A stretch of DNA of 64,000 nucleotides from an uncultured delta proteobacterium (GTDB lineage Bacteria > Desulfobacterota > DSM-4660 > Desulfatiglandales > HGW-15), in the NCBI GenBank assembly GCA_963815145.1, contig CAWFFS010000027.1, forward strand, positions 448,751 through 512,750. Reading direction: 5' to 3'. Under the pieces are notes generated by a model. That model searched no databases. It had not been told where the DNA came from and worked only from the letters and a program-made list of their open reading frames with translations. The first letter of the stretch is position 1. Each line of letters begins with the position of its first letter. A program made the position numbers and the translations under genes. Positions 31,255 through 59,621 of the stretch are shown one piece after another.

Positions 31255-31484
31255 ACAAAAAGTGATTTTATTAACATTATCTATGGGTTCTGTCCATAAT
31301 ATTCTGGGCGCAATCTTGAAAAGGTATAAAGTAAATCAATAAACCAAAAATTACTTGACATTTCGGCATGCTCAACTCAAAATGCACCTATAAAATTCAT
31401 GGCAGAAGCCATGCCAAATTTAAATTATATTTAGTATAAAGCTTGAATTATCGCTGTAAACCGGCGATTTAAATTATTGAAAAA

Positions 31485-31545
31485 GGCCACGAAGGTCATT
31501 GTCCTCGAAACAGGGACGTGATGTCGTGGCCTTTTTTTTATTTTT
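31485..31545 (+). terminator. Terminator-like hairpin element, GCCACGAAGG family copy 1, inside the divergent ppiD / TonB-receptor intergenic region
   Basis: AAAAAGGCCACGAAGGUC...GUCGUGGCC followed by U8. Confidence 0.55.
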
Positions 31546-31611
31546 AAAAGCCCAAAAATTACACAATATGGATGATTGTTATTAAAAAATTGACTGATAA
31601 ATAAAAATGTT

Positions 31612-31760
31612 GGAGGACGGCGTGCACCGGCCAGGGTTTCCACCGTCCTCCGTGTGAAGTGCTCCTGGGAAAGGAATACTTCAAAGTGATTGATACCACT
31701 GCTTTCCTTTCCCGTCAAGGTGCCTCTCATTACTATTGTGAGAGGCACCGCGAGCACCTT
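31612..31760 (+). promoter_or_regulatory. Structured 5' leader (hairpin plus predicted three-way junction) upstream of the TonB-dependent receptor operon
   Basis: P0 is GGAGGACGG / CCGUCCUCC. P1 is AAGUGCUC / GAGCA(C)CUU and encloses P2 (GGGAAAGGAA / UUUCCUUUCCC) and P3 (GGUGCCUCUCA / UGAGAGGCACC). Confidence 0.4.
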
Positions 31761-31808
31761 ATGAGGTTTTAACAATAGGGTTGAAGATAAAAGGGAGAAA
31801 TTTATTCG

Positions 31809-33974
31809 ATGCGAATGTGGAAATGGAAACAGTGGAAGACAAGTGTTTTATTAATATTAATTATGCTTTCAATTCCGGCTATTGCCATGGCCGAACAGAG
31901 GGATATGAGTGAAGCAATCCAGAAACATCTGACTTCGGAAGAAATTGCACTGGAAGAGATCGTTGTGACTGCTGATGCGGGAATCAACCAGATGGACACC
32001 AAAGTGGGTATCAAGAAAATCGAAAAGGGCAAAAACATAAATATACCGGATGTACTGAAATCCGAACCGGACATAGACCTGAAACGAAGGTCTCTGGTGG
32101 GTGATACGACCGACAGCCTTGCCATAAGAGGTTTTACGGGTAACCGCATTATGCTTGATATCAACGGCAGGCCGGTAAACGCTTCGGGTGTTGTTGGCGG
32201 TTATTATATCGACTGGAGTACGATCCCCCTTGATAACATAGAAAAAATAGAACTGATCCGGGGCGGAAGCTCAGTCAGGTATGGAAACAATGCCCTGGGC
32301 GGTGTTGTAAACGTGATTACAAAAAAGCCCACGGAAAAACCCACATTGACATTCTACGGAACCTACAGTGTCGGGGACGGTATTGATTCCATACAGAACT
32401 ATCGCCTGACCCACACCTATAAAATCGGCCCCTTGGGCTATTCCCTGGCTGGCAGCTACCAGAAGGCCGATCCTTTTCTCTGGAATAATGATTTTAAGGG
32501 TAAAGATTTTTCAGCTTTCTTCGATCTTGATATGCCCCTGGACGGAGAATTTACCTTCGGTTTTCAGTATGCCGATTCCGATCGGGGATTTATCCGGGAA
32601 AACAGGGTTTCAGATGATCCCGGTAATCCCGGCTTCTATCAAAAAAAGGACGATAACTATCCCCTTGCCTTCGGGGAGACCTTCAGCCCCTATTCGGGCA
32701 CTGCCTTTATTCCGGGGCCAGGGGCGAGATGGAATAAAACCAAATACTATTTTGACGCCGGTTATTCGCAGCCCATTGGTGACGCGTTCATTGATTTCAA
32801 GGTCTACAAAAATATTGAAGACCGGAAAGAGAAAAATTATTCATCCGCTGATATCAACCCGGCATACCAGGATGGCCAGCTTGTGCTGGACAGGGATGTG
32901 GCATCGGATCGCTCCTATGGCGGAAATATTGAACTTAAAAAGCCTTTTAGTGACCATGAACTGCTCCTGGGCGCTCAGCACAAGGTCCTTGCTTATGGAG
33001 ACATAACCACCAATTATATAGATATGACCTATAATAACGCCCCCTGGGTGACCATGGCGAGCCTTTCAAACAAGCCGTCATCCGAAGGTGTGACCTGGGG
33101 ATATTATATGCAGGACACCTGGACGCTTTCGGATCGTTTGACCCTGACCGGAGGACTCAGGTATGACGATTACAGGAACAGAGCCATCAACGGCAGCACA
33201 TCGCCTGAACTGAAAGACAATGCCCTCACTCCCAAGCTCACCGGTACTTATATTATAAACGACAAAGATACCATTACCGCCTCGGCATACCAGGCACTGA
33301 GGACACCGGGATTACCGGAAACCTACTGGTGGGCCAACGGAGCAACCAAAGGCAATCCTGTCCTGACGCCTGAAAAGAATAATGCAATAGAGCTTTTTTA
33401 CCGGCATAGATTCAACGGGTCAGGGCTTATAAGGCTGTCTTCCTATTATTATGATGTAAAGGACTATATCATATTCCGCTTCGACCCCACATGGCGAGGT
33501 GTATACAATATTGACAAGGCTGAGATCTACGGTGCATCTCTGGATGGCATGACAGTTTTCAATGACCGGCTTTCAGGAAGGGCATCCGTGACCTTTCAGA
33601 AATCAAAGAAGAAAGGGGATATGTACGATACTGCCGGCCTGTCGGATGAAATAGACTATCTGCCCGAATGGAAGGCCAGCGGAGGGCTTGATATTAACCT
33701 GCCAAGACGTTCTGCCCTGAATATTTCTCTAAAGTATGTAGGAGAACGCAGTGCAATCTATGCATACAGCAGTGGATATCCGGCACAGGAGTTCTTCAAA
33801 CGCGTTGAACTTGACTCCTACTTAACTGCGGATATCAACCTTAAAATCCCCGTCAGTAAACACGCGGAATTCAACTGTTACATAGAAAACCTTTTTAACA
33901 AAGAATACGAAGAGCAGTTTGGCTATCCCATGTCCGGCCGTATTATCGGCGCAGCATTTAAACTGTCAATATAA
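31809..33974 (+). CDS. TonB-dependent outer-membrane receptor
   Basis: Signal peptide, plug-domain motifs (IEKIELIRGGSSVRYGNNALGGVVNVITKKP) and a 22-strand-barrel-sized C-terminal region. Confidence 0.9.
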   Translation: MRMWKWKQWKTSVLLILIMLSIPAIAMAEQRDMSEAIQKHLTSEEIALEEIVVTADAGINQMDTKVGIKKIEKGKNINIPDVLKSEPDIDLKRRSLVGDTTDSLAIRGFTGNRIMLDINGRPVNASGVVGGYYIDWSTIPLDNIEKIELIRGGSSVRYGNNALGGVVNVITKKPTEKPTLTFYGTYSVGDGIDSIQNYRLTHTYKIGPLGYSLAGSYQKADPFLWNNDFKGKDFSAFFDLDMPLDGEFTFGFQYADSDRGFIRENRVSDDPGNPGFYQKKDDNYPLAFGETFSPYSGTAFIPGPGARWNKTKYYFDAGYSQPIGDAFIDFKVYKNIEDRKEKNYSSADINPAYQDGQLVLDRDVASDRSYGGNIELKKPFSDHELLLGAQHKVLAYGDITTNYIDMTYNNAPWVTMASLSNKPSSEGVTWGYYMQDTWTLSDRLTLTGGLRYDDYRNRAINGSTSPELKDNALTPKLTGTYIINDKDTITASAYQALRTPGLPETYWWANGATKGNPVLTPEKNNAIELFYRHRFNGSGLIRLSSYYYDVKDYIIFRFDPTWRGVYNIDKAEIYGASLDGMTVFNDRLSGRASVTFQKSKKKGDMYDTAGLSDEIDYLPEWKASGGLDINLPRRSALNISLKYVGERSAIYAYSSGYPAQEFFKRVELDSYLTADINLKIPVSKHAEFNCYIENLFNKEYEEQFGYPMSGRIIGAAFKLSI

Positions 33975-33989
33975 CAGGAGGTTTTCAAG

Positions 33990-34781
33990 ATGAGTGATAT
34001 ACATGGGACATATTTTCGGCAGGAAAAATACAACGCCTTCTGGAACAGAATGGCGCTTCATTATCCTGATCCCTTTAATTCAAAGACACTTTCGGATACC
34101 AGCGAAGTTCTTTCTGTTGTTAAAGGCAAAGGGGTGGAAATATACGGGGCAGCCATACTGGATATCGGGTGCGGTACAGGGACCTATACGCTGCCCCTTG
34201 CCAGGGATGCAGCAATGGTTACAGGGCTTGATGATTCCACTCGAATGATCGAACGCCTTACTGCTTCCATATCCAATTCCTGTTTACAGAATGTCCGCAC
34301 TGTAATGGCCTCATGGAAGGATATAGACATCTTGCAGGCGGGCTTTGAGAAGGCCTTTGATATCGTATGGGCTTCTATGACCCCTGCTGTGAGGACTCCG
34401 GAGGATTTCATAAAACTGGAGAAATGTTCAAAGAACTGGTGTGTTTATATAGGCTGGGGTGGAAAAAGAGAAGACAGCTTAATGAAAGAGGTATTTGATC
34501 TGCACGGTCTTAAGTTTGGTCCACCGCCGGGTGTGACGGAGGCGTACAATATCCTGCTGCAATCAGGGAAAACACCGACTCTTGATTATTTTGAAACCTC
34601 ATGGGACTGGACCGGAAGTGTCGATGAGGCAATGGAGTATATGGAGTTCTTTATCGAAATGCAGGGCGGAAATCCGGATCGTGGCTTGATTGAAACGGCT
34701 CTTGGCAGGCATGAACGGCAGGGCATGGTTTCACACACAACCTATGCAAAGGAAGGTATAATGGTATGGCAGGTACCATAA
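33990..34781 (+). CDS. Class I SAM-dependent methyltransferase
   Basis: Motif I ILDIGCGTGTYTLPLA and post-I VTGLDDS. 263 aa. Confidence 0.75.
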   Translation: MSDIHGTYFRQEKYNAFWNRMALHYPDPFNSKTLSDTSEVLSVVKGKGVEIYGAAILDIGCGTGTYTLPLARDAAMVTGLDDSTRMIERLTASISNSCLQNVRTVMASWKDIDILQAGFEKAFDIVWASMTPAVRTPEDFIKLEKCSKNWCVYIGWGGKREDSLMKEVFDLHGLKFGPPPGVTEAYNILLQSGKTPTLDYFETSWDWTGSVDEAMEYMEFFIEMQGGNPDRGLIETALGRHERQGMVSHTTYAKEGIMVWQVP

Positions 34782-34816
34782 GAACTGTCCATGTAGCTTT
34801 GGGATAAAATTCAGGG

Positions 34817-35860
34817 ATGACAGTGAAATATTTATTACATAAAACAGGCCATGGCACCATCACAGCAGCCTATCTGAAACAGGTAAGACACAAACTGTCT
34901 CTCCTGGGGTTGCTTATGTGTGTAATAGCACTTGTTTCGGTTTATGCGATTGCAGCGGGATCCTATTATATTCCATTTAGAGAGGTTATGAGTACTCTGA
35001 TTGGATTCAGTGATAATACCACTCGCGTGGTGATTACCAACATAAGGATGCCAAGGATTGTTGCGGCGCTTTTTTGCGGATGGGGTCTTTCTCTTTCCGG
35101 ATTGACCATACAGTCCCTTTTAAAAAATCCCCTCGGCTCTCCCATAACACTCGGCATAAGTCAGGGTGCTGCCTTCGGGGCTGCTGTTGCAATCGTTGTG
35201 TTTGGCGCAGGGATGGTCTCGGTAACTGCTTCAGCTTTTGCAGGAGGAATGTCTGCCACAATTATCATTCTTGCACTTGCAAAATTTAAACGGCTTTCTC
35301 CCCTTGCAATTATTCTGTCAGGCACTGCACTTCATTCCCTGTTTCTTTCGGGAACTTATTTGATTCAATATCTTGCAAATGAGGCCGATCTTGCCAGGGT
35401 AGTGTTCTGGAGCTTCGGAGATGTCGCCCGTTCAAGCTGGATGGAGATATGGATTATGGCAGGGGGTGTCTTTATTCTTTCCCTGTTTCTTGGAGCATTC
35501 AGGTGGGATCTGAACGCCCTTGCTTCGGGAGAAGAGACTGCAAAGGGGCTGGGAGTGAGGGTCGAACAAATAAGGTTATCCGGAATGTTTATTGCCACAC
35601 TTGTAGCTGCACTGGCAACGGCCTTTCATGGGATTATAGGATTTCTTGGGTTGATTGCTCCTCACATGGCAAGACGTATTGTAGGTGAAGATCATTCGAT
35701 TTTAATTCTCTTTTCTGCTGTTCTGGGTGCCCTGCTGCTCCTTGTGGCCGATACACTGGGGCGCGTGTTTATCGGCTCAGGGTCATTACCGGTTGGTGTG
35801 ATCACATCATTCTTAGGCGCACCAATGTTTCTTTTTCTTTTAGCCAGGGAGGTGAAATGA
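34817..35860 (+). CDS. FecCD/BtuC-family ABC transporter permease
   Basis: 347 aa, about 9-10 TM helices, typical Gly-rich FecCD C-terminus (GVITSFLGAPMFLFLL). Confidence 0.9.
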   Translation: MTVKYLLHKTGHGTITAAYLKQVRHKLSLLGLLMCVIALVSVYAIAAGSYYIPFREVMSTLIGFSDNTTRVVITNIRMPRIVAALFCGWGLSLSGLTIQSLLKNPLGSPITLGISQGAAFGAAVAIVVFGAGMVSVTASAFAGGMSATIIILALAKFKRLSPLAIILSGTALHSLFLSGTYLIQYLANEADLARVVFWSFGDVARSSWMEIWIMAGGVFILSLFLGAFRWDLNALASGEETAKGLGVRVEQIRLSGMFIATLVAALATAFHGIIGFLGLIAPHMARRIVGEDHSILILFSAVLGALLLLVADTLGRVFIGSGSLPVGVITSFLGAPMFLFLLAREVK

Positions 35861-36609
35861 ATCTTGAAGTGACAAATATCCGGTTCTCCTATAACGGTCA
35901 CCAGGTATTAACCGATGTTACATTTTCTATCGAACCGGGGCAGGTGGTATGTGTCCTTGGCGTAAACGGGGCTGGCAAATCCACCTTGCTTAAATGTCTT
36001 AACCGCATACTGAAGCCCCAAACAGGGGTTGTACTGGCTGATGGTGATGATTTATTCCATATGGGTTCCAACAGAATAGCCCGCCTTATGGGGTATGTCC
36101 CCCAGCGACACCCTGAAACACAATCTACAGTCTTTGAAACAGTACTTATGGGGAGGAAACCTTATATTCAATGGTCTCTCGGGCAGGAGGATTATGCCAT
36201 TGTAGAAGAGACTATAGAGCAGATGCATATAGCTCATCTGGCTATGCGAAAGGTTTGTGATCTGAGCGGAGGTGAAATCCAGAAGGTAATAATAGCCAGG
36301 GCTCTTGCTCAGTCACCGGAGGTCCTGCTCCTGGATGAACCTACAAGTAATCTTGACCTTAAAAACCAGCTTGAAGTCATGAGGCTGGTTCGCAGTGTGG
36401 TTAAATCGAAGGGGCTGTCCGCAGTCATTGCCATTCATGACCTGAATATCGCCCTGCGGTTTGCTGACAGCTTTGTCTTTTTAAAAGAAGGGCAGATCCA
36501 TGAAATATGCAAAAAGAACGAGTTGTGTCCTGAGATGATCCACCAGGTTTATGGTGTGGATGTGGCATTGAGTGAAGTAAACGGGCACACCCTTGTGGTT
36601 CCTTTATAA
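35857..36609 (+). CDS. ABC transporter ATP-binding protein (FecE/BtuD type)
   Basis: Walker A GVNGAGKST, signature LSGGEIQ, Walker B LLLDEPTSNLD. 4-nt overlap with the permease gene. Confidence 0.9.
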   Translation: MNLEVTNIRFSYNGHQVLTDVTFSIEPGQVVCVLGVNGAGKSTLLKCLNRILKPQTGVVLADGDDLFHMGSNRIARLMGYVPQRHPETQSTVFETVLMGRKPYIQWSLGQEDYAIVEETIEQMHIAHLAMRKVCDLSGGEIQKVIIARALAQSPEVLLLDEPTSNLDLKNQLEVMRLVRSVVKSKGLSAVIAIHDLNIALRFADSFVFLKEGQIHEICKKNELCPEMIHQVYGVDVALSEVNGHTLVVPL

Positions 36610-36633
36610 GAACACACTGCATGGAGAAGCATC

Positions 36634-37731
36634 ATGAAGAAGTTCATTATATTTGTATGTTGTTTCATTTTAGGCATCCCATTGATATCCGGTGCCGCTG
36701 CATCAATAGATGTAACCGATATGGCTGGCCGTCATGTGACAACCCAGGTTAATCCGGGCCGAATCCTGTGCCTGGGTCCGGGTACCTTGCGTCTTATCGT
36801 ATATCTTCAGGCAGAATCCAGGTTAGTGGGTGTCGAAGATATGGAAAAGATGAATCCGGGCGGAAGGCCATATTGGATTGCACATCCGGAGCTTCATAAA
36901 CTCCCCCGGTGCGGCCCCGGAGGACCGGCGGGTATAGGTAAAAAACCGGACCTGGAAACAGTTCTTTCATTAAGGCCGGATATTATATTTACCACCTATA
37001 TGGAAGGAACAATGGCCGATGATATACAGAAGACACTCGGTATTCCGGTAATTGTATTGAGTTATGGAGAATTTGCGACTTTCGATGAGACGGTCTACAA
37101 ATCATTGCTTGTCGCAGGCAGTATCCTGGACAGGGAAAAACGTGCCAGTGATGTTGTCGCATATATCGAATCCCTGAGAAAAGACATGCTGAACCGAACC
37201 AGCGAAGTACCTGATGGGGCAAGGCCATTAGTGTATGTGGGCGGCATAGGTTACAAGGGGTCATACGGCATAGAAAGTACAGAGCAGAGTTATATCCCCT
37301 TTAAATGGCTCAACGCGGATAATGTATCCGAGCGTGTTAAGGCCACCACAGGCAGCCACGTATTCATGGATAAGGAAATACTCTTAAAATTGAATCCCGA
37401 TGTCATATTCATCGATGGCGGCGGTATAGATCTGGTAAAAGATGATTTCAGAAAAAAGCCAGAATACTACCGCACCCTGCGCGCCTTTTCCCGGCAGCAG
37501 GTATATACCCTGTTGCCATTCAACTGGTATGCAACCAACATCGGGACTGCCCTGGCAGATGCCTATGCCATAGGCAGGATCATTTATCCGAAGCGATTTA
37601 AAGATATCGATCCGGAGATCATGGCTGATGAGATATATAAGTTTTTACTTGGGACGCCTGTGTATAAGGATATGAAAAAAGCTTATGGCACTATAGGGCA
37701 AAAAGCACAGTTTAAATCACTGACTAATTAA
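36634..37731 (+). CDS. Periplasmic substrate-binding protein, class 8 (FhuD/BtuF-like)
   Basis: Signal peptide, 365 aa. The pattern RILCLGPG..R..VYL and PDIIF/PDVIFIDGG is typical of siderophore/corrinoid-binding proteins. Confidence 0.75.
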   Translation: MKKFIIFVCCFILGIPLISGAAASIDVTDMAGRHVTTQVNPGRILCLGPGTLRLIVYLQAESRLVGVEDMEKMNPGGRPYWIAHPELHKLPRCGPGGPAGIGKKPDLETVLSLRPDIIFTTYMEGTMADDIQKTLGIPVIVLSYGEFATFDETVYKSLLVAGSILDREKRASDVVAYIESLRKDMLNRTSEVPDGARPLVYVGGIGYKGSYGIESTEQSYIPFKWLNADNVSERVKATTGSHVFMDKEILLKLNPDVIFIDGGGIDLVKDDFRKKPEYYRTLRAFSRQQVYTLLPFNWYATNIGTALADAYAIGRIIYPKRFKDIDPEIMADEIYKFLLGTPVYKDMKKAYGTIGQKAQFKSLTN

Positions 37732-37733
37732 TA

Positions 37734-38378
37734 ATGGAGGAAACTATCATGGATGCAAAACAAATAATGGAAGGCGATAAGTTTAAAAAATGCGCTGACT
37801 TTCACGGCCATATCTGCCCCGGTCTTTCAATAGGATACAGGGCTGCCGAAACTGCCATGGGATGGCTCAGGGAAAATCGTTCTGAGGATGAGGAGATCGT
37901 TGCCATTGTAGAGACTGACGCCTGTTCTGCTGATGCGGTACAGGTCCTTACCGGCTGCACATTTGGCAAGGGCAACTTTATTTATAAGGATTACGGAAAG
38001 ATGGTGCTTACTCTCATGAGCCGAAATAGCGGTCAGGGCGTTCGTGTGGCAATGAAGGCCGGGACCTTTTCTCCCGATGATATCCATCAAATGCTTCTCA
38101 GGAAGGTAATGAACGGGTCAGCCAGTGAGGAAGAAAGAAAGCAGTTTCAGGACCTCCATTTCAAACGGAGTTGTGACATTCTTGAGAAGCCTGAAGAAGA
38201 TCTGTTTACCATCAAGCCTGTTCAAATGGCACTGCCTTCAAAAGCACAGATAGCGCCATCCGAACCCTGTGCGCTTTGCGGGGAACCAACCATGCGCACA
38301 AAGCTGCAAGAATCTGTCCACGGCCTGATCTGTAGAGGTTGCGCGGAACAGTCTACAGCATGGTATAACACATTGTAA
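37734..38378 (+). CDS. FmdE-family protein with C-terminal Cys4 zinc ribbon
   Basis: FHGHICPGLSIGYRAA motif of the FmdE domain. C-terminal CALCGEP...CRGC. Confidence 0.75.
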   Translation: MEETIMDAKQIMEGDKFKKCADFHGHICPGLSIGYRAAETAMGWLRENRSEDEEIVAIVETDACSADAVQVLTGCTFGKGNFIYKDYGKMVLTLMSRNSGQGVRVAMKAGTFSPDDIHQMLLRKVMNGSASEEERKQFQDLHFKRSCDILEKPEEDLFTIKPVQMALPSKAQIAPSEPCALCGEPTMRTKLQESVHGLICRGCAEQSTAWYNTL

Positions 38379-38402
38379 AACTATTTTAGAGAGTGTAGTG
38401 AG

Positions 38403-38825
38403 TTGCCAAAACGAATTTGTATTATAGATGGACAGGGAGGTGGAATCGGAGCAGCTGTGATCCGGTCCATAAAGAGCAACTTTGAAGAATCAATTACGCT
38501 GATTGCTCTGGGTACAAACACCATAGCAAGCGCCAATATGTCGAAGGCTGGAGCCAACCTTGTTGCAACAGGTGAAAATTCCATATGCAGGACAGTGCCC
38601 GAAGCTGACATAATAATAGGTCCTGTGGGGATAGCATGGCCTAATGCCATGATGGGGGAGGTGACTACTGAAATTGCCGAGGCGGTTGTATCAAGCCCTG
38701 CATATAAAGTGTTACTGCCTTTCACTCAGGAGCCTGTTGAGATAATAGGCGTAGTAAAAGAACCACTACCCCACATGATTGAAAAAGCTGTAAACCTGAT
38801 TAAGGAGGTTTTAAAAAATGTGTGA
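38403..38825 (+). CDS. DUF3842-like protein
   Basis: The N-terminal IIDGQGGGIGAAVI motif and about 140 aa match my recollection of DUF3842. TTG start. Confidence 0.5.
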   Translation: MPKRICIIDGQGGGIGAAVIRSIKSNFEESITLIALGTNTIASANMSKAGANLVATGENSICRTVPEADIIIGPVGIAWPNAMMGEVTTEIAEAVVSSPAYKVLLPFTQEPVEIIGVVKEPLPHMIEKAVNLIKEVLKNV

Positions 38826-39006
38826 AGCAAACGCATATCTTATTAAAGACGGTGAGGAGATTCTTATAATGGAATCTGTAGACATGGTCACGCCTGAAGA
38901 AGAGGAGAGTTGGCATCTGGTAAATATTTTCGGCGAGCAGAAAGACGTAAAAGCCAAAATCAGGGAAATGAACCTGGTTGATCACAGAATCTTGTTTGAA
39001 GCGTAA
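38818..39006 (+). CDS. CooT-family small nickel-binding protein
   Basis: 62 aa beginning MCEANAYL. Cys2 is the Ni ligand in characterised CooT. Overlaps the upstream gene by 8 nt. Confidence 0.6.
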   Translation: MCEANAYLIKDGEEILIMESVDMVTPEEEESWHLVNIFGEQKDVKAKIREMNLVDHRILFEA

Positions 39007-39111
39007 TAAATCCAGGAATATATCTGCAGAAGCTGATTATTTTTGATTTCGGGGCGAAGTCCGAATAGTTTTTAAATATTTAACCATCATTTCATTGCAA
39101 TCTGAATAAAA

Positions 39112-39165
39112 GGCCACGAAGGTCTGTTGTATCAGTCATGATACACGCCCTTGCGGCCTTTTTTA
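39112..39165 (+). terminator. Terminator-like hairpin element, GCCACGAAGG family copy 2
   Basis: AAAAGGCCACGAAGG...CCUUGCGGCC followed by U6, with an inner stem GUAUCA / UGAUAC. Confidence 0.6.
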
Positions 39166-39192
39166 TGAACACCGATAAAAGGAAAACCATAC

Positions 39193-40179
39193 ATGGATAA
39201 AACCGAAGTCCTGCGCTCTATTAAGTATGACCTGGTAGAGTATATCCAGGCAAAGGTTTCGGTAGACTTTGGCAATGCCGGACAAATTCCCATTTCCTTT
39301 ATCTATAATAAAAAGACCTATGTAATCAAAGAAGTACTGGGCAGGTTTTTAAAGAGAGATGTTTTTTTATCCAACGGATTTCTGGTGACAGTCAATGATG
39401 GTGATGTTTTTTATATTTATTTCCATACCCGGAATTTTGCTCAACATATGCAAATATGTGAAGGAAACTGGATTTTATGTTTCAGGATACTTAATGACCA
39501 TGAGTTGATGGCTTTTTACAGGGAGGATCGAAAGGTGCTTTTAAATATGACAATGAAGATGCTCGTGGATTTCCACGGACATATTTGCCCTGATCTGGTT
39601 ATAGGTGCAAAACTCAGCGAGTATATCCAGCAACTGGTCTCTGAAACCAGTGGGTTGGATGTCGGTATATCGATTCTGGCACAGAATTGTACTTCTGCCA
39701 TTGATGCTATCCAGGTCCTGCTGGGTACAACCTTTGGAAACCAACGCCTGCAGGTCCTGGATTTTGGGAAACACATCTATTCCCGCTTAATCATCGATGC
39801 TGAAAAAAGTTACATGTTTTCCATGAGGAAGCAGTATTATGGCGATGAAGATGAATTCGAAAACCTGGAACAGAAGATTTTAAACAGCCAGATAACACTG
39901 GAGGAAGCAGTCAATTTTCAAAAATTAATGGACAGACGTATAGAGACGCTTTTTTCTCTGACACCTGCGGAGCTTTTTGGCTGTGACAGCATTGAAAGGG
40001 GACAGCCATTCTATGAAATACCAAGTATTTACCTGACATGCAGCGAGTGCGGACATCAGGTGGTAAAAAATCGATCAATAAATTACCACAATAAAATCTA
40101 TTGCGTCTCATGTTTTCAAGATGTCTGTAAAGAATGTAAACACTACAACGTTCAATGGAAGGAAAAAAACAATGGATAA
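39193..40179 (+). CDS. Fusion protein: unknown N-terminal domain (~115 aa), FmdE domain and C-terminal zinc ribbon
   Basis: FHGHICPDLVIGAKLSEY (FmdE motif). C-terminal CSECGH...CVSC...C.EC. Confidence 0.65.
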   Translation: MDKTEVLRSIKYDLVEYIQAKVSVDFGNAGQIPISFIYNKKTYVIKEVLGRFLKRDVFLSNGFLVTVNDGDVFYIYFHTRNFAQHMQICEGNWILCFRILNDHELMAFYREDRKVLLNMTMKMLVDFHGHICPDLVIGAKLSEYIQQLVSETSGLDVGISILAQNCTSAIDAIQVLLGTTFGNQRLQVLDFGKHIYSRLIIDAEKSYMFSMRKQYYGDEDEFENLEQKILNSQITLEEAVNFQKLMDRRIETLFSLTPAELFGCDSIERGQPFYEIPSIYLTCSECGHQVVKNRSINYHNKIYCVSCFQDVCKECKHYNVQWKEKNNG

Positions 40180-40375
40180 TAACACAAAGGCAAGGATACA
40201 GATTGAACACTGGCTGAAACACAACAATTCTCATATTCAGGAATATGAGGCTTTTGCCTCCTACCTTGAAAAAGCCGGAAAAGAGGAGAGTGCTTTGTAT
40301 ATCCGGGAAATGGCTACCCTGGTTATCCAAAGCAATGAAAAACTGGAAATGGCTCTTGAGAAACTGGTGGATTAA
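40172..40375 (+). CDS. Small helical protein with an H-x3-H-x3-H ladder
   Basis: 67 aa from ATG 40172, overlapping the upstream stop by 8 nt. The segment EHWLKHNNSH places His at i, i+4 and i+8. Confidence 0.4.
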   Translation: MDNNTKARIQIEHWLKHNNSHIQEYEAFASYLEKAGKEESALYIREMATLVIQSNEKLEMALEKLVD

Positions 40376-40397: not shown

Positions 40398-41387
40398 ATG
40401 AAGAGCGTTATTGTTACCGGTGGCGCGGGTTTTATCGGAAGCTGCTTTGTCCAGAAGCTCAACAAAGAAGAAATAGATGATATCCTTATTGTTGATGATC
40501 TAAAGGAAAGCGATAAATGGAAAAATCTTTCAGGCCTTCGTTTTTCAGATTACCTTCATAAAAACACATTTCTGGAAGCTGTCAATTCCGATAGTCTGAA
40601 ATTTGAACCCCAGGCTGTTGTATAGATGGGTGCATGTTCAGACACTACCGAAAATAACGCAGAGTATCTGATGGAAAACAATTACAGGTTCAGCAGTATA
40701 CTCGCAGAATGGACAGTAAATAGGGATATACGATTTCTCTATGCAAGCAGCGCCGCCACCTATGGCGGCGGTAAAAAAGGTTTTTCCGATGAAATTGACC
40801 TGTATTCGCTCCGCCCGCTCAATATGTACGGATACTCAAAACATCTTTTTGATCTCTATGCAGATCAGAGCGGGCTTCTTGATAAAATTATCGGCCTTAA
40901 ATATTTTAATGTTTTCGGACCGAATGAATACCACAAGGGTAAGATGGCAAGTGTAGTGTTTAAAGAATTTCACCAAATTAAAGAAACCGGACGAGTAAAT
41001 CTGTTCAAATCTCATCGTGATGATTACTACGATGGGGAACAGATGCGTGATTTTATTTATGTCAAGAATTGTGTAGATGTAATGTGGTGGCTCTTAATGT
41101 ATTCAAAAGCAAACGGGCTTTTCAACCTGGGCACAGGACGTGCCAGGTCGTGGAATGACCTCATAAATGCAGTTTTTTCAGCAATGGGACGAGAGCCCCA
41201 AATCAATTACATTGACATGCCACCAACAATCCGTGACAACTATCAGTATTTTACACAGGCTGATATGAGCAGACTCAGGAAAACAGGCTGTCCTCTGGAT
41301 TTTCGATCTTTGGAAGAATCGGTACAGGATTATATTGTGAACTATTTGCAGACCAATCAACCACAAATAAGCAAACCGGATAAATAG
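40398..41387 (+). pseudogene. hldD: ADP-L-glycero-D-manno-heptose 6-epimerase interrupted by an in-frame TAG at 40623..40625
   Basis: VTGGAGFIGS, GACSDTTE, LYASSAATYGG, YGYSK and NVFGPNE..KG.MASV are collinear with E. coli HldD. TAG aligns with the His of the FHEGAC motif. Confidence 0.8.
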
Positions 41388-46302: not shown

Positions 46303-48624
46303 ATGAGTTCAATAACAATTAGCCTTGCAGGCAATCCCAATTGCGGAAAGACCACTTTATTCAACTGTCTTACAGGGGCAAAGCAAAGAGTGGGAAACTG
46401 GCCGGGGGTAACGGTTGAGAGAAAAACCGGTGTTTATAGTCATAAGGGTAAGGAAATAGAGGTTGTTGACCTTCCGGGAATATATTCCCTTTCTGCAACT
46501 TCCCTGGATGAAAAAATATCCAGAGACTTTGTTATATCCAGAGAGCCCGGTCTCATCCTGAATATAATAGATGCCTCAAACCTTGAAAGAAATTTGTATC
46601 TTACTGTTCAACTCCTTGAAATGAAGGTCCCCATGGTTGTGGCCCTCAATATGATGGATATTGCTGAGCAACACAAGATCAGGGTAAATATTGAAAAACT
46701 TGGAAAATATCTGGACTGCCCGGTAATTCCCATTGTTGCAAGCAGGAACCAGGGAATAGATAACCTCAGGGATGCTGTAAACAATACAGCAGTATCCGGA
46801 AAGATCCCCGAAGCAGGCTTTAGATATCCAGCCAAGATTGAACAGACAATAGAGTCCTTTAAAACTCTCCTAAAAGAACAGGCCGTGGCCAGGAATCTGG
46901 ACAGCAGGTGGCTGGCAATTAAACTCCTTGAAGAAGATGAAATGGCAGAGGAACTTGCCGAAAAAATATCTTCATCCGAACTGGAAGAAGCAAGGAAAAA
47001 GATGGACAAGATCCTTGATGATGATCCTGACATAATCATTGCGGACGCCCGGTACGGTTTTATCAACGGTGCATGCAGGGATGCGGTCGAAAAAAAATAC
47101 GAGGTCAGAAGAACCGTTTCGGATGACATTGATAATATTCTACTGAACCGGATTCTGGGCATCCCCGTATTTCTCGTGGCAATGTATGCGACATTCATGG
47201 TAACTATTAATATCGGGGGATGCTTTATAAATTTTTTTGATATTCTCTTCGGGACTGTGTTTGTTGAAGGTTTAGGCGCTGTTCTTAAAACTCTCCATTT
47301 TCCTGCATGGCTTGTTACCTTTCTTGCCGGAGGAATAGGCGGCGGTATACAGACGATGTCTACATTTATTCCACCCATAGGATTCATGTTTTTGTGCCTG
47401 GCAGTACTTGAAGACTCCGGTTATATGTCCCGTGCAGCCTTTGTAATGGACAGGTTTATGCGCTATGTAGGACTTCCGGGAAAATCATTTGTTCCCATGC
47501 TTGTGGGTTTCGGTTGTAATGTACCGGCTATTATGGCTACAAGGACACTTGATAATGAAAGGGACAGGACTCTGACCATAATGATGAATCCCTTCATGTC
47601 CTGCGGCGCAAGGCTTCCGGTTTATGCACTCTTTGCTGCGGCTTTCTTTCCTACATCAGGAAGTGCGCTTGTTTTCGGACTTTACATCGCTGGAATACTC
47701 CTTGCCATTATGACGGGCTTTATCCTCAAAAGCACTGTTCTTAAAGGGGAAATATCCCATTTTATAATGGAACTTCCTCCCTATCATTTCCCAACAGTCA
47801 GAGGTATTCTATATCATGCATATGAAAGGCTTAAAACCTTTATGTTCCGTGCCGGAAGAGTGTTGATACCCATCTTCGTGATACTTGCCTTTCTTAATGC
47901 ACTGGGCAGCAACGGCAGTTTCGGCAATGAAAACAGTAAAAACTCGATACTGAGTGCAGCAGGCCGTGCTATTACACCCGTATTCGAACCTATGGGACTA
48001 ACCGAAAAGAACTGGCCGGCTACAGTGGGGATCTTTACAGGGATCTTTGCAAAGGAAGCGATAGTGGGAACACTTGATGCGTTATATACCTCCATGGCCA
48101 AAGAAGATAGTGGCAAAGAGATGGAAAATTTTGATTTCATCGGCAATGTTGCTGAGGCATTCGGATCCATACCTGCCGCATTCTCTAAACTTGGCAGGAC
48201 CGTGACAGATCCCCTTGGCATAAGTGTTGGTGATGTTTCGAATGTTGATACTGCTGCCGGAGAGCAGGGGGTAAGCAAAACAACATTTGGCACAATGGTG
48301 GCAAGTTTTGACGGAAGGATCGGGGCAATCGCTTATCTCTTATTTATCCTTATTTATTATCCATGTCTGGCCGCCATTTCGGCTATATACCGTGAAACCA
48401 ATATAAAGTGGACCATCTTTGCAGGGACTTATTTAACTCTGCTTGCCTGGGTGGTTGCAACGTTGTTTTATCAACTCGGAACATTCATAAGACACCCCGG
48501 TACTTCGATGATGTGGGTTGTCATCCTGGGGGCGGTCTTTGGGGCATTTGTGTTCGGCATGAAAAAGGCTGCCGGAACAACCCCGGACAGGAAAAGTCGT
48601 TTTCATAAACTTAAAACTGTATAG
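46303..48624 (+). CDS. feoB: Ferrous iron transporter FeoB
   Basis: N-terminal G-domain (GNPNCGKTTLFN, DLPG), then a polytopic membrane domain. 773 aa. Confidence 0.95.
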   Translation: MSSITISLAGNPNCGKTTLFNCLTGAKQRVGNWPGVTVERKTGVYSHKGKEIEVVDLPGIYSLSATSLDEKISRDFVISREPGLILNIIDASNLERNLYLTVQLLEMKVPMVVALNMMDIAEQHKIRVNIEKLGKYLDCPVIPIVASRNQGIDNLRDAVNNTAVSGKIPEAGFRYPAKIEQTIESFKTLLKEQAVARNLDSRWLAIKLLEEDEMAEELAEKISSSELEEARKKMDKILDDDPDIIIADARYGFINGACRDAVEKKYEVRRTVSDDIDNILLNRILGIPVFLVAMYATFMVTINIGGCFINFFDILFGTVFVEGLGAVLKTLHFPAWLVTFLAGGIGGGIQTMSTFIPPIGFMFLCLAVLEDSGYMSRAAFVMDRFMRYVGLPGKSFVPMLVGFGCNVPAIMATRTLDNERDRTLTIMMNPFMSCGARLPVYALFAAAFFPTSGSALVFGLYIAGILLAIMTGFILKSTVLKGEISHFIMELPPYHFPTVRGILYHAYERLKTFMFRAGRVLIPIFVILAFLNALGSNGSFGNENSKNSILSAAGRAITPVFEPMGLTEKNWPATVGIFTGIFAKEAIVGTLDALYTSMAKEDSGKEMENFDFIGNVAEAFGSIPAAFSKLGRTVTDPLGISVGDVSNVDTAAGEQGVSKTTFGTMVASFDGRIGAIAYLLFILIYYPCLAAISAIYRETNIKWTIFAGTYLTLLAWVVATLFYQLGTFIRHPGTSMMWVVILGAVFGAFVFGMKKAAGTTPDRKSRFHKLKTV

Positions 48625-52255: not shown

Positions 52256-53656
52256 GTGAGAATCATGAAATCAATTGCTATCCTCTGCGTGCTGTCTTTG
52301 TTTCCAACAGTGGTGTTTGCTCAGAATATGGAAGACCGGCTGAAACATCTCGAAGAAACACTGAAACAACAGCAGCAGACCATAGATCAACAGCAAAAAA
52401 CAATTGAACAGTTACAAACTAAACTCAATCAAATTCAGCCCGCTGCTGCCACAGGCGCCGGGACCGGCCAGATCACTTCATCCGGACAGGTGCAAGAGCA
52501 AATGAAAGAATTGAACGAAAAGGTGGATAATGTTGTTGAAGCGCAGCGTAAGGTTCTGCCGAGCGAATTCAACCCTTCCATAGGGTTGGTAGGTGAAACA
52601 GTCTTTTCCTATCGAAACCGGAACAGCGATGAGACAGGAAGCGAACGGCCCGGGGGATGGGACGCTTTCCAGCGCTCGGTGGAGCTGAATGCAGCCGCCA
52701 CAGTCGATCCATTCGCCACTGCGTATGTGGTGGCCAACGCCACTGCGGACGCTACGACCAGGGAATCAACATTTGGCATCGAGGAAGCGGCCTTGGAAAC
52801 CAATTCCCTTCCCTGGAACCTTACCGTGAAAGCCGGACGCTTTTTCGGTGAATTCGGCCGTCTGTCTGACATCCACGATCATGAACTCCCCTTTGTGAAC
52901 CGTCCCCTCGCACTCGACCAGTATATCGGCGGAGAATCGAGGACTGACGGCCTGCAGCTTAACTGGCTGCTGCCGACTGAACATTACGTGAGTATTACAA
53001 TGGGTGCAGGAGACCAGTTCGGCGGGGACGCGCCCCCGAATAACGTCGATGGATTCCGCCATGGCAGTGGACTTAATTACTGGGGTCGTCTCTCTACATA
53101 TTTCGATCTGACCCCGGATATCTCCTTTGAACCCGGTGTTTCGGCCCTGTGGAACCCGAGCACTATTGACCGGGGAGGATCGTTTCTCCAGCCTGACGGC
53201 AGTTCGCTGACTGAACGGGAGCGCCGTTTGTTTGGCCTGGATATGGTGTTAAGCTACAAGCCGCTGCGAAATAATCAGTTCAAAAGCCTCACGTGGGGGA
53301 CTGAACTGCTTTACAGCGACAACCGCTATGATGCCGATACGGAAGATACGCTAACCGGCCGAACCGTCGGCTCCCTCGGACTCTATTCATATATTACCTA
53401 TAAATTTCACAGGCAGTGGTCGACCGGTTTCCTCTTCGATTATGTGGAGGACGCTACGGACAGCCATGCCAGGACCATTGCCTATTCGCCGTATATTACA
53501 TGGGCCTTGAGCCACTGGAACCAGCTCCGGCTTCAATATACCTATACCGATTACAACGCTGAATCAGCGGCCACCGGCCTGCGTCCGGATAGCGCTGTTT
53601 ATCTGCAATGGGCCTGGATCATCGGTTCACACTCTCACGGCTGGCAGCAACGATGA
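52256..53656 (+). CDS. Outer-membrane beta-barrel protein with N-terminal Gln-rich coiled coil
   Basis: Signal peptide, coiled coil LKHLEETLKQQQQTIDQQQKTIEQLQTKL, then about 350 aa of alternating strand-like sequence. Confidence 0.5.
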   Translation: MRIMKSIAILCVLSLFPTVVFAQNMEDRLKHLEETLKQQQQTIDQQQKTIEQLQTKLNQIQPAAATGAGTGQITSSGQVQEQMKELNEKVDNVVEAQRKVLPSEFNPSIGLVGETVFSYRNRNSDETGSERPGGWDAFQRSVELNAAATVDPFATAYVVANATADATTRESTFGIEEAALETNSLPWNLTVKAGRFFGEFGRLSDIHDHELPFVNRPLALDQYIGGESRTDGLQLNWLLPTEHYVSITMGAGDQFGGDAPPNNVDGFRHGSGLNYWGRLSTYFDLTPDISFEPGVSALWNPSTIDRGGSFLQPDGSSLTERERRLFGLDMVLSYKPLRNNQFKSLTWGTELLYSDNRYDADTEDTLTGRTVGSLGLYSYITYKFHRQWSTGFLFDYVEDATDSHARTIAYSPYITWALSHWNQLRLQYTYTDYNAESAATGLRPDSAVYLQWAWIIGSHSHGWQQR

Positions 53657-53676
53657 TAATAAAAGGAGAAATACCT

Positions 53677-54609
53677 ATGAAATCTAAAACAATTCGTTTG
53701 TTCATGATACTTATGTTTACCTGGTCGTTGTGCTTGGCTGGTGTTCCTGCACAGGCAGCAAAAATCCGGGTTGTCACAACACTCACGGATCTTGCGGACC
53801 TCACCCGCGCCGTGGGCGGAGACCTGGTTGATGTCAAAAGTCTGGCCACCGGTGTAGAAGATACACACGGGGTCCCGATGAAGCCAAGCTTCGTGCCGTT
53901 GATGAACCGGGCTGATCTGCTGATGCTGGTAGGGTTCGATTGCGAGCATGCCTTTCTTCCGGCCTTGATCGAGGCGAGCAAAAACCCGCGCATCCGGTAC
54001 GGATCGCCCGGGTATATCGATTGCTCCCAGGGAATCGTGCCGCTCAATGTCCCCAAATCGACCGGTCACTTCGAAGGGGACGTACACCCCTACGGCAACC
54101 CGCATTATATGCTAGACCCCGTCCTCGCTGAGACCGCACTTGAGAACATCTACAACGCCCTTTCGGAATTCGCACCGGAGCACAAAGCCGAATTTACGCG
54201 GAATCGGGATGCTTATCTCGCCAGGCTCAACGCAAAGATCATCGAGTGGCATGCGGCTCTGGCGCCGTTCAAAGGGACTGCGTTCGTGTCGTATCACGAG
54301 CACTGGCCCTATTTTGCAGCGCGGTTTGGCCTGGTATATTTCGGCACAATTGAACTGAAGCCGGGTATTGACCCGACTCCGCGGCATATTGAGGAGTTGA
54401 TTACGGCAATGAAGGAAAATCATGTTCCCATCGTCGTACGCGAACCGCAGTTTCCTGAAAAAGTACCAAGGCTTATCGCCCAACAGACCGATGCAACCAT
54501 GATAACACTCCCCATCATGCCTGGCGGAGTACCCAACACTAAAACCTATATCAGGATGATGGATTATATCGTACATACAATTGCTTCCGCTATGAAATCA
54601 AGAAGATAG
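53677..54609 (+). CDS. Metal (Zn/Mn) ABC transporter substrate-binding protein, ZnuA/TroA family
   Basis: Signal peptide. Motifs D.HG.P..PS and H.YGNPHYMLDP are typical of cluster A-I binding proteins. ATG at 53677 has an AGGAG RBS. Confidence 0.85.
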   Translation: MKSKTIRLFMILMFTWSLCLAGVPAQAAKIRVVTTLTDLADLTRAVGGDLVDVKSLATGVEDTHGVPMKPSFVPLMNRADLLMLVGFDCEHAFLPALIEASKNPRIRYGSPGYIDCSQGIVPLNVPKSTGHFEGDVHPYGNPHYMLDPVLAETALENIYNALSEFAPEHKAEFTRNRDAYLARLNAKIIEWHAALAPFKGTAFVSYHEHWPYFAARFGLVYFGTIELKPGIDPTPRHIEELITAMKENHVPIVVREPQFPEKVPRLIAQQTDATMITLPIMPGGVPNTKTYIRMMDYIVHTIASAMKSRR

Positions 54610-54611
54610 AT

Positions 54612-55370
54612 ATGGAAAGGATGCCCGCCCTTTCGGGCGGGTATATAAAACAAACTATGAATGCACCACTTATCACATTAGACAATCTTAGCATCGGTTA
54701 TAACAGCCAGCCCGTGTGTTCAGGGATTTCACTCTCCATTGCCCGTGCCGGCTATACAGCCATACTTGGCGCCAATGGTTCGGGCAAATCCACCCTGCTC
54801 AAGACACTTCTCGGCCTGCTTCCGCCTGTCGCAGGAAGAGTTGAAAGCTCATTAAGGGACAGAGCAATCATATTCGGTTATGTGCCGCAATCGGCACAAT
54901 TCGACCCTATGTATCTGCTTACTGGCTTCGACGTGGCCCTGATGGGGGTGTATGGACGTATCAGGCCTGGCAGGTTTGTTCCTCAACATGAGCGCGAGTT
55001 TACAAAAGAATGCATGAATGCCACAGGAGCCGCTGATCTTTCCCGGAAGTGTTTCGCAGAACTCTCAGGCGGCCAGAAACAGCGCGTACTTATTGCCAGA
55101 GCCCTTGCCACGCGTCCGGATGTTCTTGTGCTGGATGAACCGACTGCCGGTATTGACCGGGAAACCACAAAATCGGTACTTGCGTTCATTGACCGGATAA
55201 ACAAGGAACAGAAAATTACAATTCTGCTCGTCACCCATGACTTCGCAGCCGTGCGCCGCCACGCGCAATACGTCATCTGGTTTTATGAAGGTAAGCTATT
55301 TCACGGTGAAACATCTACGCTTCTCACTGCCGACCGGATGGCGGAAATATTTGAGACAGGAGTTGAATAA
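54612..55370 (+). CDS. Metal ABC transporter ATP-binding protein (ZnuC/TroB type)
   Basis: Walker A GANGSGKST, signature LSGGQKQR, Walker B VLVLDEPTAGID. Confidence 0.9.
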   Translation: MERMPALSGGYIKQTMNAPLITLDNLSIGYNSQPVCSGISLSIARAGYTAILGANGSGKSTLLKTLLGLLPPVAGRVESSLRDRAIIFGYVPQSAQFDPMYLLTGFDVALMGVYGRIRPGRFVPQHEREFTKECMNATGAADLSRKCFAELSGGQKQRVLIARALATRPDVLVLDEPTAGIDRETTKSVLAFIDRINKEQKITILLVTHDFAAVRRHAQYVIWFYEGKLFHGETSTLLTADRMAEIFETGVE

Positions 55371-55372
55371 AT

Positions 55373-56275
55373 ATGGAAATACTGCATCAAATCCTATCGC
55401 CTGATTTTCTTCTGCGAAACTCGCTGTATACAAGCGTATTTATCGGTTTTGTGTGCCCTCTTCTCGGAGTATTCCTCGTATTGCGCCGGCTGGTGTTTCT
55501 AGGGGTTGCTCTCCCTCAGATATCTTCGACAGGTGTTGCTGTTGTGCTCTCACTCCCAATGTGGCTGGGGTTCAGTCTTTCAGGCAGCACGCACAGCATG
55601 CATGCGTTTGCCTTTGCCGGATCGATAACCTTTTCGCTGATCGCTATCCTGATACTTGCATTTCTGGAACGGCGCGGGAGCGGACAGCCCGAAGGGCGGC
55701 TTGGTACTGCATATGTGGTAGCCGCCGCACTGAGTATCCTGCTTCTATCGAAGAATCCCTATGGCGAGATCGGATGGCTCAATATGCTGAAAGGAGAAGT
55801 CATCACCATCTCCAATTTTGATCTCCTGCTGACAGCGACAACTCTTGCCCTTGTTATTGCCATTCTGGCAATATTCCGCAAAGAGTTTCTCTTGGTTTCC
55901 TTTGACAGGGAGATGGCATTGACGCTGCATAGAAATGTCGTCCTTTGGGATGTGTTGCTATATATGCTGATCGGCATTACAGTTTCCATGGCCGTACTCA
56001 GCGTGGGCCCGCTCATCTCCTTCGGATTTCTTTTGATTCCTGCTATGACTGCCCACACGATCGCCCGCAACATGCGTCTATTTACGGTGTTGGCATCTTT
56101 GATCGGTGGTATAGCCGCCTTTTTAGGCTTTTGTGTTGCATATGCGTGGGATCTGCCTGTCGGACCAACTGATGTCGTTCTCCTCGGTGTGCTGTACTCA
56201 ATAACATGGGTAGTCGTGAGGATTCTTCCCGGAGGTTTTCGGTCCTCAGTGCGAAAAGGGAGAGCACCTGACTAG
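55373..56275 (+). CDS. Metal ABC transporter permease (ZnuB/TroC type)
   Basis: 300 aa, about 8-9 TM helices, adjacent to the ATPase gene. Confidence 0.85.
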   Translation: MEILHQILSPDFLLRNSLYTSVFIGFVCPLLGVFLVLRRLVFLGVALPQISSTGVAVVLSLPMWLGFSLSGSTHSMHAFAFAGSITFSLIAILILAFLERRGSGQPEGRLGTAYVVAAALSILLLSKNPYGEIGWLNMLKGEVITISNFDLLLTATTLALVIAILAIFRKEFLLVSFDREMALTLHRNVVLWDVLLYMLIGITVSMAVLSVGPLISFGFLLIPAMTAHTIARNMRLFTVLASLIGGIAAFLGFCVAYAWDLPVGPTDVVLLGVLYSITWVVVRILPGGFRSSVRKGRAPD

Positions 56276-59568: not shown

Positions 59569-59621
59569 GATTTTCATTATTTGATAGTACGTTTTAAAAG
59601 GCTTCATGCCTTTTGACGCAG

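Follow-up and report, generated by a model that had tools for sequence, protein, structure and literature searches.

Ten genes at positions 31809–40375 of a 64-kb stretch of DNA (64,000 nucleotides, the window in what follows) from an uncultured delta proteobacterium of sulfate-reducer type in the order Desulfatiglandales (assembly GCA_963815145.1, contig CAWFFS010000027.1, positions 448,751 to 512,750 of the forward strand) form a cluster in which a TonB-dependent outer-membrane receptor (TBDR) and an ATP-binding cassette (ABC) importer are accompanied by a class I S-adenosylmethionine (SAM)-dependent methyltransferase (MTase) and by proteins of the FmdE, DUF3842 and CooT families. A sequence-only reading had interpreted the cluster as an import and delivery pathway for a chelate of nickel (or cobalt), sharing a leader with the nikKML genes of the same window. 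A check of the open reading frames (ORFs) of the window recovered all ten genes at the coordinates previously given (Table 1), with the spacings and overlaps described, and Pfam hidden Markov models confirmed the families proposed for the TBDR, the MTase, the FecCD permease, the ATPase, the periplasmic binding protein (PBP), FmdE, DUF3842 and CooT.

The genes fall into two transcription units, one of eight genes running from the TBDR gene to cooT and one consisting of the gene for an FmdE fusion (FmdE2) and that for a small helical protein with a ladder of His residues. Gaps of 15, 35 and 2 nt separate the TBDR from the MTase gene, the MTase from the fecCD gene and the PBP from the FmdE1 gene, respectively, while overlaps of 4, 8 and 8 nt are found between fecCD and the ATPase gene, between the DUF3842 gene and cooT and between the FmdE2 gene and the His-ladder ORF. 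The finer features claimed for these proteins were also seen: the C-terminus of FmdE1 is a CxxC...CxxC, i.e. a Cys4 ribbon; the CooT-like protein starts with MCE, and its Cys2 is invariant in 70 out of 70 homologues; the first ~125 aa of the FmdE fusion, regarded as a novel N-domain, have no match in Pfam; and the EHWLKHNNSH ladder is present in the 67-aa protein. NCBIfam gave no equivalog-level name for any of the ten cluster proteins.

Table 1. Position of the cluster genes and of the leader elements in the window (R1 is a covariance model built on the leader's terminator)
Feature	Position	Strand	Match or property
Promoter-like site, TTGACA-17-CAAAAT	31355–31383	+	10/12 matches
Leader copy 1	31392–31540	+	R1 60.2 bits, E 1.5e-11
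Second structured segment, between terminator and TBDR start	31610–31770	+	strongly paired; no Rfam match
TonB-dependent outer-membrane receptor (TBDR), 721 aa	31809–33974	+	Plug and TonB barrel (Pfam)
Class I SAM-dependent methyltransferase (MTase), 263 aa	33990–34781	+	Methyltransf_25 E 3e-12, also Methyltransf_11
FecCD/BtuC-type ABC permease	34817–35860	+	FecCD E 3e-86, full length
ABC ATPase	35857–36609	+	ABC_tran E 2e-31
Class III periplasmic binding protein (PBP), TM0189 type	36634–37731	+	Peripla_BP_2
FmdE1, FmdE-domain protein with C-terminal Cys4 zinc ribbon	37734–38378	+	FmdE E 4e-45
DUF3842 protein, small Rossmann-like domain	38403–38825	+	DUF3842 (PF12953) E 2e-50
CooT-family small protein, MCE start	38818–39006	+	CooT (PF10133) E 2e-23
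Leader copy 2	39040–39164	+	R1 51.4 bits, E 3.4e-9; fold z -2.3
FmdE2 (FmdE fusion), 328 aa: ~125-aa N-domain, FmdE domain, C-terminal Cys ribbon	39193–40179	+	FmdE E 2e-22
His-ladder protein, 67 aa, helical (EHWLKHNNSH)	40172–40375	+	no Pfam match
Two tandem leader copies before nikK (58526–59296)	59327–59571	-	R1 41.1 and 35.8 bits; DUF4198 E 1e-64
Leader copy before nikM (61631–62245) and nikL (60991–61644)	62352–62411	-	R1 39.9 bits; CbiM E 1e-59

A scan with the PBP, using one genome per species, revealed 22 orthologous loci, all in Desulfobacterota, onto which the window proteins were then mapped. The FecCD-ATPase-PBP trio is present in these loci wherever the contig reaches far enough, and an FmdE gene adjoins the PBP orthologue in 13 of them. 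An orthologous TBDR and MTase are found in four loci (L078, L083, L091 and L092), a DUF3842-CooT pair lies 5′ of the TBDR gene in three (L078, L083 and L093), and a His-ladder homologue occurs in one, between the TBDR and MTase genes (L093). Genomes carrying the same families arrange them in different orders, which points to a functional link more than to the mere inheritance of one arrangement. The combination of families, recurring as it does beside PBP orthologues in varying order, is not accidental; a lack of synteny of the accessory genes in relatives, which the sequence-only reading had named as an outcome that would speak against it, was not what we found.

A leader RNA common to the cluster and the nik genes

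The leader located 5′ of the TBDR gene sits in a divergent intergenic region and ends in a strong hairpin followed by a U-run. This first copy (149 nt) contains a P1 hairpin, CAUGGC-AGAA-GCCAUG (31398–31413), two variable hairpins and a terminator (31481–31539) whose 5′ arm is GGCCACGAAGGUC, and its predicted fold has an energy of -52.2 kcal/mol (z -6.0). The second copy, with which the unit of eight genes closes and which lies ahead of the two-gene unit, has the hairpin UUCGGGGCGAAGUCCGAA (P1, 39048–39065) and a terminator at 39108–39164. The same layout is seen in the orthologous loci: a TTGACA promoter is followed, some 25–35 nt on, by an NGAA-loop hairpin (GGC-AGAA-GCC and variants, with compensatory stem changes among loci), then by a variable stretch, and finally by a long terminator hairpin with (A/G)GCCACGAAGG(U/C) as its 5′ arm and a U-run. 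In the orthologous leaders of L074, L075, L078, L083, L091 and L092, a TTGACA box has the same relative position. The second structured segment of the window (31610–31770) is kept in L091 and missing in L078, L083, L092 and L093, where the gene directly follows the terminator.

The top R1 hits in the 5.9-Mb genome are five copies, all of them in the window, two before the cluster units and three before nikM-nikL and nikK; the claim that the cluster and nikKML share a leader was thus borne out. The 9-mer CCACGAAGG occurs 28 times in the genome, and only five of these copies are intergenic and followed by a U-run, again all in the window, for which reason the possibility that the GCCACGAAGG hairpin is a generic repeat was rejected. 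A P1-type hairpin was found 5′ of 79 of 94 R1 hits, as against 6 in control stretches. No Rfam family matches the leader: searches of the whole window at the gathering threshold and of the leader at E <= 10 returned only tRNAs and chance hits. The leader is therefore a specific, conserved element that is not in Rfam. It precedes the orthologous TBDR or fecCD gene in 13 of the 22 PBP-anchored loci.

R1 matches 125 of the 151 sampled genomes of the order. We surveyed 80 regions around strong hits, containing 92 strong copies of the leader and 260 proteins encoded downstream on the same strand, the classes of which were checked with Pfam. Most numerous behind the leader are TBDRs (23 operons) and FmdE-domain proteins (20), then NikK (DUF4198) and NikL (16 each), NikM (CbiM) and FecCD/PBP importers (12 each) and NikABCDE-type importers, i.e. 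SBP_bac_5 with permeases (9). The MTase of the window type is found in seven operons, periplasmic tetrapyrrole-methylase-like proteins in five, another class I methyltransferase in four, CooT, flavin-reductase-like proteins and nucleoside-hydrolase-FmdE fusions in three each, the His-ladder protein and a CooC/MinD-like ATPase in two each and a CobN-like chelatase in a single one; CbiQ and ATPase genes are behind the leader too. The partners of CbiM in this regulon are the nickel-type NikK/NikL and PDGLE; NikK and NikL have been defined as additional parts of the nickel transporter found in delta-proteobacteria (PMC545781). The regulon of the GCCACGAAGG leader is undescribed, and both units of the cluster have the R1 hit and the P1 hairpin of its members, so that membership of the cluster, judged from sequence, may be called well supported.

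Two protein types of the regulon deserve mention in their own right. Secreted fusions of an inosine-uridine nucleoside-hydrolase-like domain to FmdE come after TBDRs behind the leader (L133:564–2051 on the minus strand, L161 and L165), an architecture for which no description was found in our searches. Tetrapyrrole-methylase-like proteins with a signal peptide, one of them a tandem duplication, follow receptor-NikK-NikL-like genes (L126:1687–2547, minus strand; L100:2774–4411, plus strand). The periplasmic location predicted for this SAM-dependent enzyme fold suggests a role in binding rather than in catalysis.

In published genomes the NikKMLQO and NikMNQO transporters are under NikR boxes, GTGTTAC-N13/14-GTAACAC (PMC545781, PMC2667541). 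Such boxes are missing in the window, where none scored above chance in either orientation, and the genome (89.7% complete) has no NikR_C match. NikR is present in only five of the 151 genomes of the order, four of which have no R1 hit and the fifth a marginal one (E 1.3e-3). The Fisher p of 0.003 obtained for this distribution overstates the association, since relatives are not independent and three of the five NikR genomes come from one genus. Even the genus to which the window belongs contains species with NikR and no leader as well as species with the leader and no NikR. Taken over the order, the complementary occurrence of leader and NikR is suggestive. A side observation concerns the two nik promoters of the window (minus strand, 59611–59657 and 62456–62502): between their -35 and -10 boxes lies a palindrome, ATAACA-N8-TGTTAT, which differs from the published NikR box and may be an operator for another regulator.

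Receptor, importer and accessory proteins

With a plug at residues 65–166 (E 2e-17) and a barrel at residues 272–695 (E 1e-37), the TBDR is a TonB-dependent receptor by its domains. Its best NCBIfam models are the selenoprotein-type receptors of Desulfobacterota (CU and PCPU), which it matches at 281 and 231 bits, with cut-offs of 700 and 800; it has PGLPE at the position of PCP-U, without a Cys/Sec motif, and is not a member of the TonB_dep_CU/PCPU families. Its orthologues in L078, L083, L091 and L092 score above 1100 bits and are behind the same leader. Among solved relatives, all of which align to the plug region only, BtuB is the best. Two other TBDRs directly behind the leader (L133:3839–5920, minus strand; L160:584–2656, plus strand) have an in-frame TGA in the context RLPCP-TGA-DYYWW, in keeping with the PCPU selenoprotein receptors of NCBIfam. 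The resulting Cys-Pro-Sec pair would provide soft-metal ligands and may be a metal-binding site of these nickel-regulon receptors.

The permease, ATPase and class III PBP genes, adjacent and partly overlapping, make up a type II (FecCD/BtuCD-type) ABC importer. The PBP matches Thermotoga maritima TM0189 (PDB 2ETV) at E 5e-105; TM0189 is itself uncharacterised, and the literature search on it turned up papers on phasing methods only. Against all characterised PBPs the match is at 1e-11 or worse, siderophore binders being at about 1e-11 and the molybdate/tungstate binder MolA (HI1472) at 3e-11. As PBP and TBDR resemble characterised proteins only remotely, with scores far below the cut-offs of the models, homology by itself does not name the substrate of the transporter. 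Assignment of receptor or binding protein to a characterised siderophore or cobalamin system, another outcome which the sequence-only reading had set against itself, did not result from these comparisons.

One alternative to nickel is that the cluster encodes ordinary ferric-siderophore or heme uptake and that the small genes downstream are unrelated passengers. The database names of the closest PBP and permease relatives do say iron(III), siderophore or heme, subfamily models of heme and siderophore receptors match the TBDR, albeit far below their cut-offs, and many metal importers are encoded in the window (FeoB, ZnuABC, ZIP). However, no siderophore or heme model reaches its cut-off, no Fur box was found within 3 mismatches of a consensus that may not fit this lineage, the supposed passengers recur with the importer in many genomes and in varied orders, and the leader is common to the cluster and the nik genes and is not shared with feoB. 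We regard this explanation as highly improbable.

Another possibility is uptake of cobalt or of a corrinoid of the B12 type, the TBDR and FecCD system acting as BtuB/BtuFCD and the MTase and FmdE on a corrinoid or its precursor. Several matches go in this direction: the plug-only similarity of the TBDR to BtuB, the good scores of the permease with BtuC models (it scores well with FhuB models too) and, among named models, CpaM (corrinoid-protein-associated) as the highest-scoring one for the MTase, with 48 bits for a cut-off of 180. The CobN-like and tetrapyrrole-methylase-like genes of the regulon fit as well, and the CbiM/CbiQ families carry cobalt besides nickel. Against it, Rfam detects no cobalamin riboswitch in the window, and in 16 orthologous loci no riboswitch of any kind 5′ of the cluster, although the lineage uses the cobalamin switch for B12 genes, as illustrated by L089, where two clear cobalamin riboswitches precede other genes; the scores with the models of BtuB and BtuC fall well short of the cut-offs, so that the cluster does not qualify as BtuBFCD; CbiM is partnered in the regulon by nickel-type proteins; and the leader is complementary to a regulator of nickel, NikR. 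Thus, a corrinoid or cobalt cargo seems unlikely.

We know of no established function for FmdE, DUF3842 and most CooT homologues, which are widespread in anaerobes. Both FmdE1 and FmdE2 contain FHGHICP, hence the His-x-His-x-Cys of the FmdE family (PF02663). In FmdE1, these residues (His24, His26 and Cys28) are kept in 36–38 of 39 homologues and align with metal-site residues of solved FmdE proteins, including 2GVI. According to the structural study of the family, the metal site is at the bottom of a groove that fits a fairly large ligand, one crystal contained mixed Zn/Ni, and most FmdE genes adjoin metal-ion transporters (PMC2954224); this paper was the only one to turn up in a literature search for FmdE together with CooT. 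The FmdE domain of FmdE2 covers residues 127–262. The N-domain in front of it is conserved in six further loci, and no Cys or His within it is conserved; in L123, L137 and L170, a homologue of FmdE2 is the gene that opens the operon behind the leader. The His-ladder protein has seven homologues, in which the second and third His are invariant. Its homologues adjoin FmdE2-type genes (L097, L104, L109, L123 and L170) and cooT (L104 and L013); L013 is a locus of the window's own genome (C7, L013:9247–9649, plus strand), outside transporter clusters and without the leader, where the His-ladder homologue is directly followed by a third cooT.

The CooT of the cluster is a full-length member of its family, matched over positions 1–59 of the 60 in the Pfam model. 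It aligns with the solved Carboxydothermus hydrogenoformans CooT (6FAN) at E 3e-13, including the conserved His toward the C-terminus (VDHRIL). There is no cooS gene adjacent to the window cooT, and the genome has an acetyl-CoA synthase (ACS). For DUF3842, matched over residues 4–132, the ‘metallochaperone flavour’ attributed to the cytoplasmic proteins as a group is not supported: the protein has an invariant Gly-rich loop of nucleotide type (DGQGGGIG), and of its Cys and His residues just one His is conserved. Its AlphaFold2 model (predicted local distance difference test score of 85) is small and Rossmann-like, and a fold search gave weak matches to nucleotide-binding domains (template-modelling score of ~0.5). 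We take DUF3842 to be a probable nucleotide-binding partner of CooT rather than a protein that binds metal. All 1544 of its homologues are unnamed or called DUF3842. The family occurs in 153 of 401 sampled genomes of the phylum, and in 56 of the 60 loci inspected there the next gene is cooT. No mention of this pairing was found in the literature, where the sole reference to DUF3842 is unrelated. Pairs beside FecCD/PBP/FmdE/TBDR clusters exist in four loci from other families of the phylum (L041, L051, L055 and L069), and in L052 the pair lies directly 5′ of the leader and CbiM-PDGLE.

A third alternative is that the importer is a molybdate/tungstate transporter of the MolBC-A kind and that FmdE and DUF3842-CooT serve Mo/W cofactor enzymes. 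FmdE was first found in the operon of a molybdenum formylmethanofuran dehydrogenase, and a paralogous FmdE of the genome is beside an oxidoreductase of the type with a Mo/W-bis-pyranopterin guanine dinucleotide; the PBP matches MolA, as said, and a second DUF3842-CooT pair of the genome is near two moeA genes and a ModE-like gene. MolA is, however, no closer to the PBP than siderophore-binding proteins are, Rfam finds no molybdenum cofactor (Moco) riboswitch in the window or the leader, and no ModA/TupA-type gene is found among the 260 proteins downstream of the leader. In L052, a modABC operon adjoins the leader-controlled CbiM operon and is not itself behind the leader, and the paralogous FmdE genes near Mo enzymes lack the leader. 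As to the moeA neighbours, moeA is near DUF3842 in only three of 61 loci, and two of the three belong to the family of the window genome; since they are not conserved, a Mo/W role deduced from them was set aside. We consider this alternative very unlikely.

The MTase has neither a signal peptide nor a close solved or named relative. Its orthologues in the seven leader-controlled operons stand beside importers of the FecCD type or of the NikABCDE type. Recurrence beside two different types of importer suggests that the MTase may act on the imported species.

Proposed nickel uptake and delivery, and related systems

Nickel is the reading of the cluster that best fits both the complementarity between leader and NikR and the set of genes in the regulon. 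We think it probable that the cluster belongs to a nickel-uptake regulon and that what it imports is, most likely, nickel in complexed form. A nickel (less likely cobalt) role is, as far as comparative sequence data can tell, well supported, and the pathway proposed earlier gains support from the shared leader, the content of the regulon, synteny and NikR complementarity. Demand for nickel exists, the genome encoding a NiFe hydrogenase and an ACS.

What we infer is the metal itself, that the cargo is a chelate, that the leader works as an OFF switch, and each of the steps in the cytoplasm, including what FmdE, DUF3842-CooT, the His-ladder protein and the MTase do there; the following scheme should be taken in that sense. 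When nickel is needed, transcription would read through the leader RNA, which would otherwise form an intrinsic terminator. The TBDR would carry the nickel species over the outer membrane, and from there it would reach the FecCD/ATPase importer by way of the TM0189-type PBP. Once in the cytoplasm, the metal or the complex could be received by the FmdE proteins, with their His-His-Cys-Cys site at the bottom of the large groove, and the MTase might modify the carrier molecule. Finally, the DUF3842-CooT pair and the FmdE2/His-ladder pair would hold nickel and pass it towards nickel enzymes, CooT doing so via Cys2. A bolder proposal is that FmdE, DUF3842-CooT, the His-ladder protein and the MTase constitute an unrecognised cytoplasmic route of nickel release, perhaps by methylation of the carrier, and that a new nickel-responsive leader RNA has replaced NikR in the order; this we put forward tentatively, as it is rather doubtful.

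Several observations weigh against the nickel interpretation. The nearest characterised relatives of the PBP, none of them close, are iron/siderophore PBPs and MolA (~E 1e-11). Transporters of the CbiM/CbiQ type carry nickel or cobalt, and a CobN-like chelatase and several tetrapyrrole-methylase-like proteins of the periplasm are encoded in the regulon. Neither DUF3842 nor the FmdE2 N-domain has conserved metal ligands. Moreover, most DUF3842-CooT pairs look like housekeeping genes, being located beside parAB/plsY and without the leader. An example is the second pair of the window's own genome (C15:440329–440910; L010:10321–10917, minus strand), which lies beside plsY and parAB, has no leader and is 1–3 kb from pgk, from two moeA genes, one of them fused to a PBP_like domain, and from the ModE-like helix-turn-helix gene. 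The role of DUF3842-CooT may thus be wider than nickel.

The use of a receptor with a FecCD-type importer for nickel has a precedent in Helicobacter, where the TonB-dependent FrpB4/FecA3 (NikH in H. mustelae), CeuE and FecDE import this metal (reviewed in PMC3856676 and PMC5140060). The likeness is in the combination of a TonB receptor, a FecCD-type importer and a class III PBP, serving there for nickel and not for iron; it is one of design and not of orthology, as no match labelled CeuE was obtained for the window PBP at E <= 0.01. The Helicobacter system differs in being under the NikR protein, whereas the window cluster is behind an RNA leader, and in that it is not known to have FmdE, DUF3842, CooT, His-ladder or MTase genes. 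The design is therefore known, and what is new here is the accessory gene set and the RNA control element. The NikKMLQO/NikMNQO transporters are present in the same window and regulon, with nikM-nikL and nikK behind the same leader, and dominate the regulon in the order, but they belong to the energy-coupling factor class, while the cluster encodes a type II ABC importer with a PBP.

The CooT/CooJ/CooC proteins, which insert nickel into carbon monoxide dehydrogenase (CODH) in Rhodospirillum rubrum and C. hydrogenoformans, are related to the cluster through its full-length CooT, with Cys2 and the match to the C. hydrogenoformans protein, and through the CooC/MinD-like ATPase of two operons of the regulon; the window cooT differs in lying outside a cooS operon and in being paired with DUF3842. 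With FmdE of the formylmethanofuran dehydrogenase operon and the solved structures of the family (2GLZ, 2GVI and 3D00), the window proteins have in common the domain, the His-His-Cys metal-site motif and the C-terminal zinc ribbon. There are, however, no fmd/fwd catalytic genes near them, and their neighbours are transporter and DUF3842/CooT genes. BtuB-BtuFCD and MolBC-A share with the cluster the type II ABC importer architecture and distant matches (the plug of BtuB, BtuC and MolA), and are set apart from it by the missing cobalamin and Moco riboswitches and by scores far below family cut-offs.

If the nickel reading is correct, FmdE, DUF3842 and CooT gain a concrete hypothesis from their context, and the published remark that FmdE genes lie beside metal transporters gains a specific setting, that of a nickel regulon. 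The cluster would also suggest a way in which sulfate reducers supply hydrogenase and CODH/ACS with nickel in sulfidic habitats, where free nickel is scarce, and nickel uptake by a receptor and a FecCD importer, so far reported from Helicobacter, would extend to environmental bacteria. The leader, for its part, offers a handle on nickel regulation in a lineage without detected NikR.

Two features of the surroundings may be added. The window as a whole amounts to a metal-uptake island, with genes for FeoB (46303–48624), ZnuA/ZnuC/ZnuB-type proteins (53608–56275) and ZIP (60090–60833) between the cluster and the nik genes. Immediately downstream of the cluster, 25 nt 3′ of the His-ladder gene, is an ADP-heptose-epimerase-like gene (40400–41387, plus strand) interrupted by one in-frame TAG (40623–40625; AVV*MGACS), either a pseudogene or the result of a sequencing error; an intact homologue of 323 aa comes after FmdE2 in L137.

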